Positions 16,099 through 61,580 of a stretch of DNA of 64,000 nt are shown in pieces. Origin of the DNA: a virus; IMG/VR virus record IMGVR_UViG_3300033516_000084, positions 36,967 through 100,966 of that record; one strand, written 5' to 3'. Position 1 is the stretch's first letter, and every line of letters begins with the position of its first letter. The translations under genes and the position numbers were made by a program. The notes under the pieces were generated by a model. The model saw nothing but the letters and a program-made list of their open reading frames with translations. It was not told the DNA's origin and did no database searches.

Positions 16099-16352
16099 AG
16101 CATAGTCCTGTTGGGGTATGGGTAGATTCTACTATGCATACACCTACCTGCTACCACAGTAATTCTGTACGTCTTCTAGCTTGCTGTGATAGGCGCATTT
16201 TCAACTTTCACCCACTTCGCTGCCCTACAGTGGATTACATACTGGCAACATGCACTTGTCGAACTCTTTGAAAGATGGCTACTTCTAGGCCTACTTCCTG
16301 AGTTATCAAAACTTTTGAGAATATATTTTCAGCCTACTGCAATTGATTGCAG

Positions 16353-33471: not shown

Positions 33472-33564
33472 TTTTTCAATCCTTTGAAGGTTGGTTGTTT
33501 GGGGTAAGCCTGTATTATATATCAGTTTATCAAGGTTTACAGGCTTTTTGAAAATATATTTTGG

Positions 33565-33864
33565 CTACTTGGAGTTGCGTCTATTGGCGTTTTGTTCGGT
33601 AACCGTAGCCCACTTACAATTTTTGGCACTATAACCTTTATTATTGTCTATTCTTTCTAGCGTCATATTTTTTGGGCGTGGGCCAAGGTCTTTCCTGAAC
33701 TGCTCGAAAGAGTCCCACTCCTTACTACAGGTGATACCCCGGCCACCGTACTCTGAGTACCAGTCGTCTTTAGGGTTTTGGCAACGCTGGCGCATGGACT
33801 TCCAGCATTCGTAGCTGGAATAGTCTGCGTTGTTTTTATCAACTTTGAATAGGTAGGCGAACAT
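33565..33864 (-). CDS. minimal HNH endonuclease
   Basis: [32 protein letters not shown]. Confidence 0.8.
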
Positions 33865-34109: not shown

Positions 34110-37100
34110 TTACCAAGTCCTAGTGATTTTCACATCAACAAGACTTCCCATCGAAGGCCCCATTTTACAATCAGCCAGGAACCGGGTCTGGGGCTCCCAA
34201 CCAACTTTATGAAAGGGTAGGCATTCCATACCCTCCACGACTTTATGTGCAAAGTACTCCCATTTGTCCTCGGGTGCGTAAACATAACTTGCATCGTGGA
34301 TGGCCCCAAAACAAGGGGCTTCAGCATACATCCCGGTACGTACCTGCTCTGAGATAGCCCAGATCATCATATCCGATAGGCATCCTTGTACCCCGCTGTT
34401 GATCGCCCTGCGCTCCTCCTGCGCCCGTATCTCTTGGCGTGGGCTATTGATTAGCGGTAGGTGGCGAACCCTGCCCAACGGACTGATGATATACCCATGG
34501 TTCTTAGCAAAGGTCTTGTACGTGTGGTGGTAGGCCAGCAACTGCGGATAGGTCTCAAAAAATACGTTGCGGGCGTGGGTAGCCTCTTCCAGGGTCATAA
34601 CCACCCCGTACCCGGTTCTGGCGTAGTCCATGAACCCTGGGGCCCCCATTCCGTAAAGAAGTCCGAACACCATGGCCTTGGCCTTTTGGCGTAGCTCACC
34701 ATAGCGTTCTTTGTCCGTCTTCTTAAGCTCCATCATCTGCTCATAGGTCAACCCTGCGGCTGTGGCTCCGGTGTAGGCGTGTAAATCCATGCCCTTGGAA
34801 AACGCGGTAAGCATGGCCTGCTCATTAGCCATACATGCGGCTACCCGTACCTCACCAGCACTATAGTCACTCTCAAGGACTACGAACCCAGGTGGGGCGG
34901 TATAGCACTTGCGGATTCGCTTACCCCATGTGGTATGTTTTGGGATTGTATTGTGGACAACGATACCGTTAGCCACGAAACTATGACTATCTTCAATGGT
35001 TAAGTCGAATGTCTCTTCGGCAGGAACCTCTTCTATACTAAGGATGGTATCTTTGGTAAACCCTGCTTCTTTGGCCTCACTGGTGTGGTGAACACCGCTT
35101 CCACACTCCACCCTAGACCAAGCCTGCCGTTTATCACTTGGGGGGACATACCAAGCTCTCTCCCCCATACGGATTTGCTCTTCGTAACCCCGTTGTACTC
35201 CAGCATGGCGCTGTTTCTCTTGTTCGTACCTTGCTCCAAGGGGGTAGCCCATCTGCAATTGATTGCACTGTAATCCCCATTCACATCCATTCGGTCTAAG
35301 GACATACCCATAGGTTTGTCCCCCATATCCGCCAAAAAGGTCTCGAATGAATGTAACCACTCCGGGCAAACCGCAATTCCACGACCCCCATAGCCCTTGT
35401 AGCCATCCACCTTTGGGTTGTAGCATCGGTTTTTCATACTGTGCCACGTTGAGTATGTCGAAGATACTTTTAGACCCTCTGATCTTCCACTGGAGTGCCC
35501 ATGTGTTGCAATAGTTTTGCACCCACATGATCTTGCTTTCCCACTGGTTAGGTAATCTGCACGAAGCTCCTTTACCGAACCACACTGGCATTTGCACTTT
35601 ACCCAATGCCTCCCCTGTATCATCCCCACGTCCTCCACTAGTAGTAGCATACCCACTGTTTTCCCTATACCCAAGTAAGGATGTTTCATCAAAAAATCTC
35701 CAAGTTATATCACCAACTTTCAACCAGTCAGCCCTAACAAACCCAGAATCCGTTAGTAGTGGGTGGTTCCCTGTACATTCAAGAACTGCCCCTGACTTGG
35801 TGGTTATCTTCAACAGAGGCTGTACGCCATTACGGTATACACCTACTACAGGCTTCCATTCCCCTGTATGGGTTAGAACCATATAAGGTTTCCCCTGTTC
35901 ATACCCATCTACCATAGATTGAATGCTCGACCAACCATCCTTATTATACACTAGTGTAGAACCCTTACAACATTGGAAGGCTGGTCCTGTGCAAGATAAT
36001 CGCCCTGTATTATGAGTCATAATACCACCAGTTACGTGACTATGGTCTTTTTCTACGGTCACCCCATAGGTAGGTTCTGGTGGTAGGTGCTTAATATCTG
36101 TTACAAAAATCCCCTTAAAAGTTGACAGTGGGCCGACATGGTTTTTTGTCTCCCAACGCTGCCCTGAAAGAACCATCCCTATGAGCCTATGGCTAACCCC
36201 AAAAATGTGGCCTAACTCCTTTTGGGTTGGCCCCCCATCAGCCACAGGTTTGGAGCTACGGATAATAGACACTATAGAGGGGGTTAGCTTAGCCTCATCA
36301 CCCACACGTTTTGTAAGAGTACCGTGCTTTACAGCATCTAAATGATCTTCTTTGGAGGTACCGTATGCCAGATTGGTAAGGGTATTATCCCATGCAATAC
36401 CATTAAGGTGCCGCACTTCCAGCCCGTTAGCCGCACCTAGAAAAGCAGTAGCCACTAATTTGTGTACTGCAAAATCCATACGGTCTTCGCCTCTGGTTTG
36501 TGACCCGTTACGGTATAGACACACTTTCAGGTGCCCCCATTTTCCTTTAGGATTTTGAGTAAGTACTCGCTTAGTTTTTTTGTTAAAAACCCTCCCCCAC
36601 GTACTCACTTCAAAATCAACCCAATTGTGAATAGGTGCCCACACCTCTGTGTCAGAGTGTGCCCATGCTTGCATACCGACCTCTAAATCCTCAGCATTTA
36701 CCCACGTATCTCTTATTCTATAAGGATGGTTGGGGGTTGTTTTAAGCACTAGACCATTACTCATAGTGACTTGGATTATCGGCTGAACTCCGTTAAAAAC
36801 GGTTTCTGTTACCGGGTGTTGTTCACCTGTGTGAGTGATAACCAGATTACCTGCCACCACATTCTCTATGGGAATGTACCCTTTGTTGGTCAACACCAAT
36901 TCCCCTGCTGGCAGACAAACCGTACCTTCTCCACTGCGCTCCTTATCCCCTGAGTAAAAAATATAGGTCGGGTGTAGCCTACCATCTGACCGTATATGTT
37001 TACCAAAACCTACTATATAAGTAGATAAGGTTTTAGTGGTACTAGAAAACTCACTCATCAGTTCAACAAATTCCTTGGCCTCTGGTACATCTTTGAACAT

Positions 37101-39164
37101 TTCTAAGTGGTCTAGACTAGTTACGGGGGCTTTTGTTTTTTCCGTAAACATTTTGGGCTTTAGGTTCAGCCCATCCTTGGAGAACATAAAATCTTTTATC
37201 AAACTGGCCTTAGTCAGGTTTAGACCTCCCTGTCTGTCGGGGTCGTAATGGCGGGCGGCTAGGATTCCACCAATCACACTTTTACCTTTACGTATCAATC
37301 TATGGCTATCTGCTATTAAATCGGCTTCCAACGTATCGAAAGCCTCCTTGTCGATATGCACACCACCCTTCTCTACCAATTCAAAAGCTCTGGCCGCAGG
37401 ATGTAGTATATTGATGTAAAACCTAGTAAGAGGCTCATTCTGTAGTAATGCTTCCTTCTGTGCAGAAGCTATTACTAGGCAAGCATCTACATCTCCCGCG
37501 CTGTAGCGTAGGAACCCCGTTGGGTCTTTGGCGTACTCCAAGTCCATCCGGGACTTGTCTGCTGTCAAATCGAACGGGTCAGAATATCCCCCCAAACTTG
37601 GGTAGTATATCTTGCAGTGAACGTCTAACCCGTTGCTGTTATGTGATGCCAGCCCTTCGGCTATGAAAGTCTTGGTAGACGTAGTTATGCACACGACTTC
37701 ACCCAAGCCCAAGTCTTTAATACATACAATTTTGTCCTTAAATGGGCATACCGTAATTTGTGACCCAATCCACCTTTGTTTAGGAATTAGCCTCAATGGT
37801 CGAGTAGATACTAACAGTGCCAAGGAGTTCCATGCTTTTTTCATCAGTACGGTCTTGCACACATTGATGTTGTCATCATACTCACCATAGTTCAAACCAA
37901 GTTCATCAAGGATACGTTTCATATCATCTTGAACAACACCCGGCTTCTGGCCCCAAGTTACAGCCCAAGACCTGTACTGGGGTTTATCTCTGTTGGTGTG
38001 GTGACAGGAACCCTCGCCATCCAGAAACCCAGACATACGCCCACGGTCAAACTCAGATATTTTTAGCGGGTCTGGGGCAGGGGTTAGGCGGGTTATCTCA
38101 TCGCCCACCTTTAGCATTTCGGCCTTGCGCCAAGTCTGGAATCTGGATGCGTCTTCTCGAACAAGCATCTGGTGATTCCTGCTAATCCGCAAAACCGTAC
38201 CAGAGGACATAGTGACCTCCAATTTACAGGATTTTCGTGTAGACACCTCAGACACCGTAGCAATTTGGAACGTCCTGGCCTTACCCACGTCTGCCGTCTG
38301 CTCGTCAAACCCAAGCAAGGTATCCCCTTCTTGAACGCTGTCTGCGGTTACCCACCGTAAATCAGAAGTCAGTAGTTTAGTGCTGGCATCTACACAGCGG
38401 TTCTCGTCCAGAATTGACCCTAAAAGATAGGTATCCAGATTGAAATTAGTGCAGTTAATGCCAGACTGCTCGTACACCCACTCAATGTCGTATTTGCCGT
38501 TGGCGGCACGTAAACTGATTTCTTGGCAGTTCAGTAGGTAGTACAAGTCAGCCTTATGTACCGGGTCCTGCATAAAGGCCTTGGACTGCTCTTTAGAGGA
38601 AAAGGCCACCATATACCCCGTACCGGCTTTCCAACTAAATTGGAGTCCAACTATATACCCATTGGGATGGAAGCGGTCTAGGCCCATGGTCTCGGTGTCG
38701 AATGCAAGGTCTACCCGATTACCTACAGAGACCAGTTTAGCGACCTCAGAGACGATTTGTTTTAAGTCGGGTAGGTAGCAGTAGTCTCCGTACTTTGGCT
38801 CGTTGGTGCCTGTTGTGGCAAGGCGTAGCACGGCCCCTACGTCAGTGAGCATATCCACGAACTGGCCGTGGTCCATGTCCCCGATAGATGGGCTGTAGCT
38901 CACCATCAGCGGTACACCCCCGGTAGAAAGTACCTGCTTTCTAAGCCCAGTAACTTTTCTACCCTTTGGGATACCCCCCTGCTGTTGTAGGAGCAGCAAA
39001 GACGTGCTGCCCATGCAGAACACAGCCTTAGCCTGTGGCAGTAATGCGGCTAGACCCTCTAGGTCTTGGGCAAAAGTTATGGGGGTGTCGGGGTATGAGC
39101 AAGTCACAGACCCTATCTTAGACAAGATGGTCATCCTGTCGGCGTTGGAAAAGATTACTAGCAT
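34110..39164 (-). CDS. polA: DNA polymerase family A with an N-terminal UDG-like region, 3'-5' exonuclease and three inteins
   Basis: Exonuclease FDTET, NGKYD, YSAGD; TGRLS; motif A DYSAGEVR; motif B RQKAKAMVFGLLYG; motif C IHD. Confidence 0.95.
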   Translation of the reverse strand: MLVIFSNADRMTILSKIGSVTCSYPDTPITFAQDLEGLAALLPQAKAVFCMGSTSLLLLQQQGGIPKGRKVTGLRKQVLSTGGVPLMVSYSPSIGDMDHGQFVDMLTDVGAVLRLATTGTNEPKYGDYCYLPDLKQIVSEVAKLVSVGNRVDLAFDTETMGLDRFHPNGYIVGLQFSWKAGTGYMVAFSSKEQSKAFMQDPVHKADLYYLLNCQEISLRAANGKYDIEWVYEQSGINCTNFNLDTYLLGSILDENRCVDASTKLLTSDLRWVTADSVQEGDTLLGFDEQTADVGKARTFQIATVSEVSTRKSCKLEVTMSSGTVLRISRNHQMLVREDASRFQTWRKAEMLKVGDEITRLTPAPDPLKISEFDRGRMSGFLDGEGSCHHTNRDKPQYRSWAVTWGQKPGVVQDDMKRILDELGLNYGEYDDNINVCKTVLMKKAWNSLALLVSTRPLRLIPKQRWIGSQITVCPFKDKIVCIKDLGLGEVVCITTSTKTFIAEGLASHNSNGLDVHCKIYYPSLGGYSDPFDLTADKSRMDLEYAKDPTGFLRYSAGDVDACLVIASAQKEALLQNEPLTRFYINILHPAARAFELVEKGGVHIDKEAFDTLEADLIADSHRLIRKGKSVIGGILAARHYDPDRQGGLNLTKASLIKDFMFSKDGLNLKPKMFTEKTKAPVTSLDHLEMFKDVPEAKEFVELMSEFSSTTKTLSTYIVGFGKHIRSDGRLHPTYIFYSGDKERSGEGTVCLPAGELVLTNKGYIPIENVVAGNLVITHTGEQHPVTETVFNGVQPIIQVTMSNGLVLKTTPNHPYRIRDTWVNAEDLEVGMQAWAHSDTEVWAPIHNWVDFEVSTWGRVFNKKTKRVLTQNPKGKWGHLKVCLYRNGSQTRGEDRMDFAVHKLVATAFLGAANGLEVRHLNGIAWDNTLTNLAYGTSKEDHLDAVKHGTLTKRVGDEAKLTPSIVSIIRSSKPVADGGPTQKELGHIFGVSHRLIGMVLSGQRWETKNHVGPLSTFKGIFVTDIKHLPPEPTYGVTVEKDHSHVTGGIMTHNTGRLSCTGPAFQCCKGSTLVYNKDGWSSIQSMVDGYEQGKPYMVLTHTGEWKPVVGVYRNGVQPLLKITTKSGAVLECTGNHPLLTDSGFVRADWLKVGDITWRFFDETSLLGYRENSGYATTSGGRGDDTGEALGKVQMPVWFGKGASCRLPNQWESKIMWVQNYCNTWALQWKIRGSKSIFDILNVAQYEKPMLQPKGGWLQGLWGSWNCGLPGVVTFIRDLFGGYGGQTYGYVLRPNGCEWGLQCNQLQMGYPLGARYEQEKQRHAGVQRGYEEQIRMGERAWYVPPSDKRQAWSRVECGSGVHHTSEAKEAGFTKDTILSIEEVPAEETFDLTIEDSHSFVANGIVVHNTIPKHTTWGKRIRKCYTAPPGFVVLESDYSAGEVRVAACMANEQAMLTAFSKGMDLHAYTGATAAGLTYEQMMELKKTDKERYGELRQKAKAMVFGLLYGMGAPGFMDYARTGYGVVMTLEEATHARNVFFETYPQLLAYHHTYKTFAKNHGYIISPLGRVRHLPLINSPRQEIRAQEERRAINSGVQGCLSDMMIWAISEQVRTGMYAEAPCFGAIHDASYVYAPEDKWEYFAHKVVEGMECLPFHKVGWEPQTRFLADCKMGPSMGSLVDVKITRTW
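34950..35972 (-). mobile_element. Pol intein 3 (contains an out-of-frame HNH gene)
   Basis: Begins CCKGSTLV; CTGNHP; ends VVHN followed by Thr; 341 aa; the central region has no recognisable in-frame domain. Confidence 0.88.
35033..35692 (-). CDS. HNH endonuclease nested in an alternative frame of Pol intein 3
   Basis: CKCQCG, SCGC, WHSMKNRC, YGGRGI, LDRMDVNGDY..NCRWAT; own GGAGA RBS; frame offset 1 relative to polA. Confidence 0.88.
   Translation of the reverse strand: MMKHPYLGIGKTVGMLLLVEDVGMIQGRHWVKCKCQCGSVKELRADYLTSGKARSCGCKTIATHGHSSGRSEGLKVSSTYSTWHSMKNRCYNPKVDGYKGYGGRGIAVCPEWLHSFETFLADMGDKPMGMSLDRMDVNGDYSAINCRWATPLEQGTNKRNSAMLEYNGVTKSKSVWGRELGMSPQVINGRLGLGWSVEAVFTTPVRPKKQGLPKIPSLV
36009..36917 (-). 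mobile_element. Pol intein 2 with a NUMOD4-HNH domain
   Basis: Begins CLPAGELV; TTPNHP; FEVSTWGRV, VHKLVATAF, RHLNG..DN..NL; ends THN followed by Thr; 303 aa. Confidence 0.9.
37638..38396 (-). mobile_element. Pol intein 1 (reduced LAGLIDADG) in the exonuclease domain
   Basis: Begins CVDASTKLLT; SGFLDGEGS; ends ASHN followed by Ser; 253 aa. Confidence 0.88.
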
Positions 39165-60941: not shown

Positions 60942-61580
60942 CTAAACCACAATAACTAACTTTTTGCCTTGGGTAGGCTTCAACGTACACGCATCCTCTA
61001 CAGGCATCCCTAAAGACAGCCTATAGGTTAGGGCAGAATGCGATATACCCAACTTCTTAGCCCAATAAGATACAGGCTTTCGCACACCATTAACGGTACA
61101 AAAAACCGTATTCCTCTTATTAGAATCCTGCTCATCTTTTGTAGCCCACCTGCAATTGATTGCGCAGTAATTTCCGTTGTTGTCAATCCGATCAAGGGAG
61201 GTGCCTTCTGGTCGTAATCCCATGTCTTTGAAAAAGGCAGAAAATGACTGCCATTCCGCACACACGGTAATCCCCCTGCCACCATAGTGTCTGTAGGCTT
61301 GGTGCGCTGGGTCAACGCATCTAGCAACCATACTAGCCCACGAGTTAAATTCACGGGTATTGGTTTTACCGTGTAGAGTGTTTCTAAGCACCATAGCAGA
61401 AACCCTAGCACAACCACACGAAGTCGAACCACCTGTCCTCAGTGAACTGGTATTGACCTCTTTTGTAGTCCCACAATCACAGACACACAACCACTTAGAA
61501 GGTCTCGTGGGGGTATCGGTCTTAGACAACACAGTCCACATACCGTATCTGTTGCCTTCCAATCCAAGTACCCGTTTCAT
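60942..61580 (-). CDS. HNH homing endonuclease (same family as 35033-35692)
   Basis: WLCVCDCG, SCGC, WASM..RC, YGGRGITVC, LDRIDNNGNY..NCRWAT; GGAGG RBS. Confidence 0.88.
   Translation of the reverse strand: MKRVLGLEGNRYGMWTVLSKTDTPTRPSKWLCVCDCGTTKEVNTSSLRTGGSTSCGCARVSAMVLRNTLHGKTNTREFNSWASMVARCVDPAHQAYRHYGGRGITVCAEWQSFSAFFKDMGLRPEGTSLDRIDNNGNYCAINCRWATKDEQDSNKRNTVFCTVNGVRKPVSYWAKKLGISHSALTYRLSLGMPVEDACTLKPTQGKKLVIVV

Follow-up and report, generated by a model that had tools for sequence, protein, structure and literature searches.

A putative homing endonuclease gene nested in the +1 frame of an intein of a phage family A DNA polymerase

Endonuclease genes that sit inside an intein but outside its reading frame are already on record (Gorbalenya 1998; Gosselin 2025; Phillips 2026), and the case presented here comes from 64,000 nucleotides of viral DNA (positions 36,967 to 100,966 of IMG/VR record IMGVR_UViG_3300033516_000084), which form the last 64 kb of a 100,966-bp IMG/VR viral contig and are called 'the window' below. 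The element in question is intein 3, the third of three inteins in a family A DNA polymerase (PolA) gene. It is very probably a splicing intein whose endonuclease position has been filled by a once free-standing gene for a PacI-like nuclease of the PHROG 374 family, lying in the +1 frame, with both products made and with the nuclease driving homing. An earlier note on this DNA had asked for a literature check on novelty, and inteins with a homing endonuclease (HEN) outside their reading frame had indeed been reported. What is particular here is the PacI-like PHROG 374 family, the +1 phase in which stops are avoided at no cost, the Shine-Dalgarno (SD) stretch carried by a Gly-Asp codon pair, the PolA site and the range of decayed and split forms found at that site. 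A large family from uncultured phages (at least 13 lineages known from their DNA, and some 30 clusters of proteins) thereby joins the few overlapping-HEN inteins documented so far.

The nearest described relatives of this arrangement are actinophage inteins in which an endonuclease VII-like HEN is encoded in frame 3 (Gosselin, Arsenault, Gogarten, bioRxiv 10.1101/2025.01.02.630785); the same study reports antisense LAGLIDADG or VSR-like HENs and proposes invasion by free-standing HENs. As in those inteins, the HEN of the window lies between the splicing blocks and outside the intein frame, the host frame is open and its in-frame reading is without a recognisable fold; in both cases the HEN has free-standing relatives among phage HENs and is proposed to have arrived by invasion. 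The differences concern the nuclease (endonuclease VII-like there, PacI-like PHROG 374 here), the phase (frame 3 there, frame 2, that is +1, here) and the host proteins, which are DNA polymerase III alpha, terminase, minor capsid protein and thymidylate synthase there and a family A polymerase here. The present family also stands apart by its source in uncultured environmental phages and by a clear SD and start codon. A cyanobacterial dnaX intein with an out-of-frame LAGLIDADG HEN and frame-dependent selection has been described as well (Phillips, DeSimone & Gogarten, bioRxiv 10.64898/2026.09.14.751524), and that preprint credits Gorbalenya 1998 with the first proposal of an out-of-frame HEN in an intein. 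The dnaX intein resembles intein 3 in the constraint on its HEN frame and the relaxation of the host frame that overlaps it, in that mini-inteins and empty alleles coexist, and in the proposed secondary invasion of a mini-intein; it differs by its LAGLIDADG enzyme, its '+2 ORF' (open reading frame) and its location in a bacterial chromosomal gene, whereas a nuclease of putative His-Me type, a +1 phase and a phage PolA are found here.

Two further systems share part of the layout. The ShiLan domain is an HNH endonuclease encoded out of frame in a phage DNA methylase without splicing domains (Arsenault et al. 2025, PMC11855218). There too, a nuclease ORF is placed out of frame inside an open host frame whose in-frame reading amounts to a dispensable loop; however, ShiLan has neither splicing domains nor a detectable ribosome-binding site and its loop stays in the protein, whereas the loop considered here lies within a complete intein and would be removed by the predicted splicing. 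In 'fractured genes' (Dassa et al. 2009, PMC2677866), a HEN gene stands free between the halves of a split intein. The likeness lies in a HEN of free-standing type at the endonuclease position of an intein, and in relatives (L018-L020) that are split at the exact PolA site; the differences are that the host gene in the window is continuous and its intein unsplit, and that the split relatives carry no HEN between their halves.

Intein 3 and the gene nested in it

Intein 3 comprises 341 amino acids (PolA residues 1065-1405; window positions 34950-35972, minus strand) and is inserted in the conserved ..TGRLS..PAFQ/TIPKH.. motif of PolA, where the slash marks the junction. It is of class-1 type, with Cys1, a TGNH block B, a terminal His-Asn (..VVHN/T) and a Thr at position +1; residues C1, T67, H70, H340 and N341 are invariant among 14 aligned inteins (block B being T67-G-N-H70). 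The curated intein hidden Markov models TIGR01445 and TIGR01443 match it with 36.7 bits (cut-off 24.5) and 32.1 bits (cut-off 15.6), respectively, and PF14890 scores 78.5 on the whole PolA (cut-off 35.8). Intein-free alleles in relatives L164, L165/166 and L168 read ..PAFQTIPKH.. where the window reads ..PAFQ[341 aa]TIPKH.., i.e. a precise in-frame insertion, which fixes the boundaries of the intein; such alleles are natural examples of the empty target site. By these sequence features, intein 3 is a complete class-1 intein that is predicted to splice. Its distribution is patchy among close relatives of the extein: the site is empty in L164-L166 and L168 and occupied in L167, at 65% extein identity to the window for L164 and 61% for L167.

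Three parts can be told apart in the polymerase reading of the intein. The N-terminal splicing lobe (intein residues 1-97; 35682-35972, minus strand) is conserved in 14 relatives and is modelled by AlphaFold with a pLDDT (predicted local distance difference test score) of 93-96, and the C-terminal lobe (residues 280-341; 34950-35135, minus strand) with a pLDDT of 86-95; the C-lobe motifs ..AGF...ETFDLTI..SHSFVANG.VVHN are kept in the mini-intein and split forms too. Between them stretches a linker of 182 residues (residues 98-279; 35136-35681, minus strand) with no stop and a pLDDT of 30-44. The description of this stretch as a featureless linker in the earlier note agrees with that AlphaFold result, which stays below 50 throughout, and no Pfam or NCBIfam family matches it. 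The linker is probably translated in the host frame as a long, disordered loop between the splicing lobes.

The endonuclease gene occupies this position on the same strand as PolA. Its 218 codons run in the +1 frame relative to the PolA ORF (34110-39164), over 35033-35689 of the minus strand, from an ATG at 35687-35689 (with a TTG at 35692 as alternative start) to a TAA at 35033-35035. A GGAGA stretch of SD type lies 7 nt before the ATG (35697-35701, minus strand). The coordinates, the one-base shift, the private GGAGA and stop, and the placement within the intein had all been given in the earlier note, and each was found again in the ORF list, the translation and the sequence itself. Over the nested ORF, the PolA frame holds no stop, as had been said, and the third frame holds 17. 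The GGAGA is also part of the codons for the conserved Gly-Asp of the intein, and the same double use recurs in the relatives, so that one stretch serves the splicing lobe and, by its appearance, ribosome binding. A stop in the nuclease frame is met 5 codons upstream of the start in the window and 5 to about 20 codons upstream in every lineage examined. At the other end, the first 34 or so codons of the C-lobe overlap the poorly conserved tail of the endonuclease ORF, and the conserved part of the nuclease ends just before the conserved ..AGF.. of the C-lobe; real double constraint on amino acids is therefore limited to about 100 nt at the 3' end. A third layer that had been pointed out, a 14-mer at 35254-35267 (minus strand; TGCAATCAATTGCA on the coding strand), is a genuine copy of a dispersed, co-oriented motif, read here as S-A-I-N-C-R in the endonuclease codons and as C-N-Q-L-Q in the polymerase frame. 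Nested nuclease genes of this kind are invisible in databases, since gene callers report just the long ORF of the polymerase.

The layout suggests the following course of events. Ribosomes translating PolA would read through the 0.55 kb of overlap and yield an unstructured loop of some 180 residues that joins the splicing lobes and would be removed with the intein. Other ribosomes would start at the internal GGAGA/ATG and make a nuclease of 218 amino acids. This enzyme may cut intein-free PolA alleles near ..PAFQ/TIPKH.., and the cutting of empty alleles would drive the homing of the whole element.

Conservation of the two reading frames

Relatives were found in IMG/VR with an alignment of PolA inteins as query; a single intein sequence used as query matched nothing. 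Thirteen lineages with a nested gene were obtained at the DNA level (the window, L004/5, L006, L007, L008, L009, L010, L012-14, L016, L017, L021, L022 and L024), on contigs from different samples and with intein identities of 28-47%. All 13 have the same intein at the same site with an open homologous ORF in the same +1 phase, and in all of them the host frame is free of stops, versus 5-18 stops in the third frame. A start codon is present at the homologous place just after the N-lobe in every lineage (ATG in 12, TTG in L007), and 12 of the 13 have a GGAG or GGGG stretch, i.e. GGRG(A), 6-10 nt upstream of it. The independent translation of the nuclease that had been proposed gains support from these conserved signals. 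In addition, about 30 further PolA protein clusters from other sources, compared at the protein level, have a homologous linker in the polymerase frame, which is to be expected only if the same DNA is read in the same phase.

Freedom from stops is no default property of such genes. Among 79 free-standing homologues of the nuclease, the frame equivalent to the host frame is the most stop-rich one, with 3-33 stops (mean 16) and not a single case of zero. For the window copy, which has 58 risky codon contexts, the probability of having no host-frame stop is about 7e-9 to 1.5e-8. The improbability put forward earlier is accordingly borne out, and is stronger than the figure attached to it (1e-5 to 1e-4) would have it. 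How the stops are avoided follows from the phase. In the +1 arrangement, a host stop can arise only from a T at the third position of a nuclease codon that is followed by AA, AG or GA. NNT and NNC always encode the same residue, so that replacing this T by C is synonymous and overprinting is free of cost. Third-position T before AA, AG or GA was found in 0 of 635 such contexts in the nested genes, compared with 1277 of 4781 in the free-standing ones. On the sequence evidence, host-frame stops are purged by synonymous choices alone.

The two frames are otherwise constrained very unequally. Differences among nested copies at nuclease codon positions 1, 2 and 3 amount to 0.41, 0.37 and 0.60, and mean pairwise amino acid identity over the overlap is 50% in the nuclease frame versus 26% in the host frame. 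Judged from these comparisons, the nuclease protein is under purifying selection and the host frame is constrained only to stay open. The +1 phase thus offers a possible reason for the persistence of the layout: where third-position T is replaced by C, with no change to the nuclease protein, the host frame stays open.

A different PolA intein, at motif B (..AKAGNFG/C...VSN/CLYGM..), was observed in L018 (3308-5341) and also in L019. It holds a distant PHROG 374 nuclease ORF (L018:3897-4649; E 8e-29), again in the +1 phase, and is a second, independent example of a nuclease nested in this way. Pfam did not recognise a splicing domain in this intein of L018.

The nuclease family, the forms of the site and competing explanations

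The nested ORF matches the PHROG families phrog_374 (E 1.4e-61), phrog_3377 (E 3.4e-51) and phrog_8790 (E 2e-37), one of which is named HNH. The relatives that tblastn found in 1118 phage records are genes on their own, some 200 codons long and mostly labelled 'HNH endonuclease' or 'hypothetical protein', and more than 570 loci on viral contigs of IMG/VR match the nested nuclease. Homologues match from residue 1 to about residue 210, and this end-to-end match identifies the nested copy as a complete gene and not a domain. At the nucleotide level, blastn against phage genomes returned only an 88-nt match, to an HNH gene of an Acinetobacter phage. Neither in Pfam (at E <= 0.01) nor in NCBIfam (at E <= 0.1) does a family match the nuclease, HNH profiles such as PF01844 and PF13392 included, and when it was compared by hhalign with HNH_3, the domain that intein 2 encodes in frame, the probability was 0.2%, which means no relation.

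Structural comparison gives the family a candidate fold. The AlphaFold model of the nuclease, built with 61 homologues, has a mean pLDDT of 90.7 and consists of an N-terminal beta-barrel with CxCxC..CGC cysteines (zinc-ribbon), a core with strands 130-133 and 145-148 and a helix, and a C-terminal helical part. Among 48,161 PDB chains, the top structural match is PacI (3m7k; Z 6.1 over 73 residues at 2.3 A with 25% identity, for model residues 73-160), a Z below 8 being not decisive. A Foldseek search of the PDB with the model had no significant result, I-HmuI ranking second at E 0.2, and a profile search of PDB sequences gave matches at chance level only, with no significant sequence match to PacI. 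PacI (PDB 3m7k/3ldy) forms group 20 of the His-Me finger nucleases in the classification of Jablonska et al. 2017 (PMC5714182); it misses the catalytic His, and a Tyr in the loop between the strands, the omega loop, takes over (PMC5714182). The invariant residues of the nuclease are R88, C89, R133, Y140, N144 and N156. The first core strand (130-133) ends in the invariant Arg133 and the core holds no His, so that the catalytic His of canonical HNH enzymes is absent, while Tyr140, in the loop between strands 130-133 and 145-148, is invariant in 61 of 61 sequences, as are Asn144 and Asn156. The predicted nuclease resembles PacI in the lack of a catalytic His on beta-1 and in the Tyr of the inter-strand loop, and may share its beta-beta-alpha-metal core; it differs by its extra N-terminal beta-barrel/zinc-ribbon and C-terminal helical domains, and in its presumable role, which is homing here and restriction for PacI. 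With moderate confidence, it is a PacI-like His-Me finger enzyme and 'HNH' in the broad superfamily sense only. The HNH label first given to it can be kept in that sense, in view of the PHROG name and the putatively PacI-like fold, but has no HNH match in Pfam or NCBIfam behind it.

The intein-3 site occurs in several forms. In the full nested class, the nuclease has the three-part architecture, and in a short class it is without the N-terminal beta-barrel/zinc-ribbon domain. In L011 (1643-2242), the catalytic core has been lost by internal deletion, leaving an ORF of 76 codons with both frames open. L015 has a mini-intein at the site. L018-L020 are naturally split at exactly this site, the stop of the ORF for the N-terminal half (IntN) overlapping the ATG of the ORF for the C-terminal half (IntC) (L018:3001-3433, L019, L020:3805-4262), with no nuclease gene between the halves. 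In the nuclease tree (100 in the Shimodaira-Hasegawa-like approximate likelihood ratio test, SH-aLRT) as well as in the splicing-lobe tree (91/98), the short class forms a single clade, which indicates that nuclease and intein travel together. Invasion of a mini-intein, as proposed in the earlier note, is supported by the free-standing homologues in more than 1,100 phage records, by the mini-intein of L015 and by the empty sites; whether the forms reflect invasion or decay is a matter of direction, and there we infer the former.

Two further members of the family belong to the same genome. A free-standing paralogue at 60960-61499 (minus strand) has 45% identity to the nested endonuclease (E 7.8e-46). 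A recent duplication from it was considered as the source of the nested gene and rejected, the paralogue not being the nearest relative in the tree. A partial third copy lies just downstream of PolA (33556-33819, minus strand); it covers residues 77-165 at 53% identity, contains one TAG and is probably a decaying free-standing copy.

Several explanations compete with that of an invading, still homing nuclease. The contig is a metagenome assembly, and one could suppose that the nuclease is really in frame and has been displaced by two compensating errors of assembly or sequencing. This has next to no chance of being right: the 13 independently assembled lineages all repeat the +1 phase and have both frames open, despite the low identity of their inteins, the ORF has its own start, SD and stop and is matched end to end by free-standing homologues, and after an accidental shift some 16 stops would be expected in the host frame. 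Compensating indels, the objection that the earlier note had raised against its own proposal, are excluded by this recurrence, to the extent that comparison of sequences can do so. A +1 frameshift of ribosomes translating PolA could also yield the nuclease, as a fusion of N-extein, N-lobe and nuclease, and the common strand, the +1 phase and an overlap that begins right at the end of the N-lobe would all suit such a product. Yet almost every lineage has a conserved start codon and, 6-10 nt upstream of it, a purine-rich, SD-like stretch, and with the nuclease-frame stop 5 to about 20 codons before the start, a shift could take place only within a short interval. Upstream of the start, where no dedicated scan was made, the sequence showed no slippery or shifty motif; frameshifting is on the whole highly improbable. 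A group I intron carrying the ORF was rejected as well, the frame being open and flanked by HINT lobes in every lineage.

The nested gene might, on another account, be conserved and no longer serve homing, being domesticated or catalytically dead in an intein that is inherited vertically. The absent canonical His, with the invariant Arg133 at the end of beta-1, the short class without the N-terminal domain, the apparent co-inheritance of HEN and splicing lobes within that class and the dispersed 14-mer on nuclease core codons could all be read in this way. However, PacI-type enzymes work without that His by means of the omega-loop Tyr (PMC5714182), and Tyr140 is invariant here; the intein is patchy among close extein relatives with intact empty sites, as expected of a mobile element; and the deletion derivative L011 and the mini-intein L015 fit a homing cycle. 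A loss of homing is accordingly considered unlikely. The reading as a splicing intein with an independently expressed homing nuclease has itself points against it. The nuclease has no Pfam or NCBIfam match and no canonical catalytic His, and it is assumed to be active from its likeness to PacI, for which the structural score is moderate (Z 6.1). The long and the short nested nucleases do not form one resolved clade, which leaves one invasion or two, and it does not follow from the trees whether the nuclease-bearing form is older or younger than the mini and split ones. That both products are translated, that the intein splices, what the nuclease cuts and in which direction the invasion went are all deduced from sequence, and the window's own letters have comparison with relatives as their sole backing.

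A broader scheme would have the PolA site preserve a whole life history, beginning with the entry of a free-standing PacI-like HEN into a mini-intein in the cost-free +1 phase (window, L004-L007). Loss of the N-terminal domain (short class) and later of the catalytic core (L011) would follow, and the last stage would be a mini-intein (L015) or a naturally split PolA intein (L018-L020). Split inteins would then descend directly from the dual-coded one, and, as a further possibility, the 14-mer on the core codons of three genes could be functionally tied to the nucleases, for example as an autoregulatory or recognition site. Taken as a whole, this scheme is speculative and rather doubtful; life-history models of that kind were proposed by Dassa et al. 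and by Gosselin et al. The presence of full, truncated, remnant, mini and split forms at one site offers in any case a system for the question of 'splicing first, endonuclease later' and for the origin of split inteins.

The dispersed 14-mer and the other inteins of PolA

Exact matches to the 14-mer (TGCAATTGATTGCA on the plus strand) number 17 in the window; they share one orientation, and the motif is strictly co-oriented with the window genes. With up to one mismatch, 26 copies are spread window-wide (e.g. at 16338, 18957, 29445, 34095 and 60494); with up to two mismatches, both strands considered, the window has 50 matches versus 0.57 expected. About two-thirds of the copies lie between genes, often immediately behind a stop codon, that of PolA included. 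A 13/14 copy falls on the same codons in the free-standing paralogue (61151-61164) and in the nested gene of L006 (L006:3697-3710), so that the shared codons x-A-I/T-N-C-R belong to the catalytic core in three separate nuclease genes; the left half of the 14-mer is not demanded by conserved nuclease residues. Exact copies are found in many related phage contigs, some of them distant (L008, L009, L012, L021, L025 and L165). The motif appears to be a clade-wide signal, and its distribution is unlikely to be due to chance.

The PolA gene itself (34110-39164, minus strand; from the ORF list and Pfam) encodes 1684 amino acids with its three inteins and matches the Pfam families DNA_pol_A (E 3.3e-46) and Intein_splicing (E 6e-22), a 3'-5' exonuclease domain being also present. 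It is one continuous ORF of 1684 codons and hence neither a fractured gene nor naturally split in the sense of Dassa 2009. Intein 1 (residues 257-509; 37638-38396, minus strand) has the boundaries C..HN/S and is absent from relatives L164-L166. Intein 2 (residues 750-1052; 36009-36917, minus strand), with Pfam matches to PT-HINT, NUMOD4 and HNH_3, has an ordinary endonuclease of the NUMOD4 + HNH_3 type encoded in frame. It ends 12 extein residues upstream of intein 3, and this spacer (TGRLSCTGPAFQ) covers window positions 35973-36008. The closest extein relative, L164, is without all three inteins, and L167 has intein 3 and is without intein 2.

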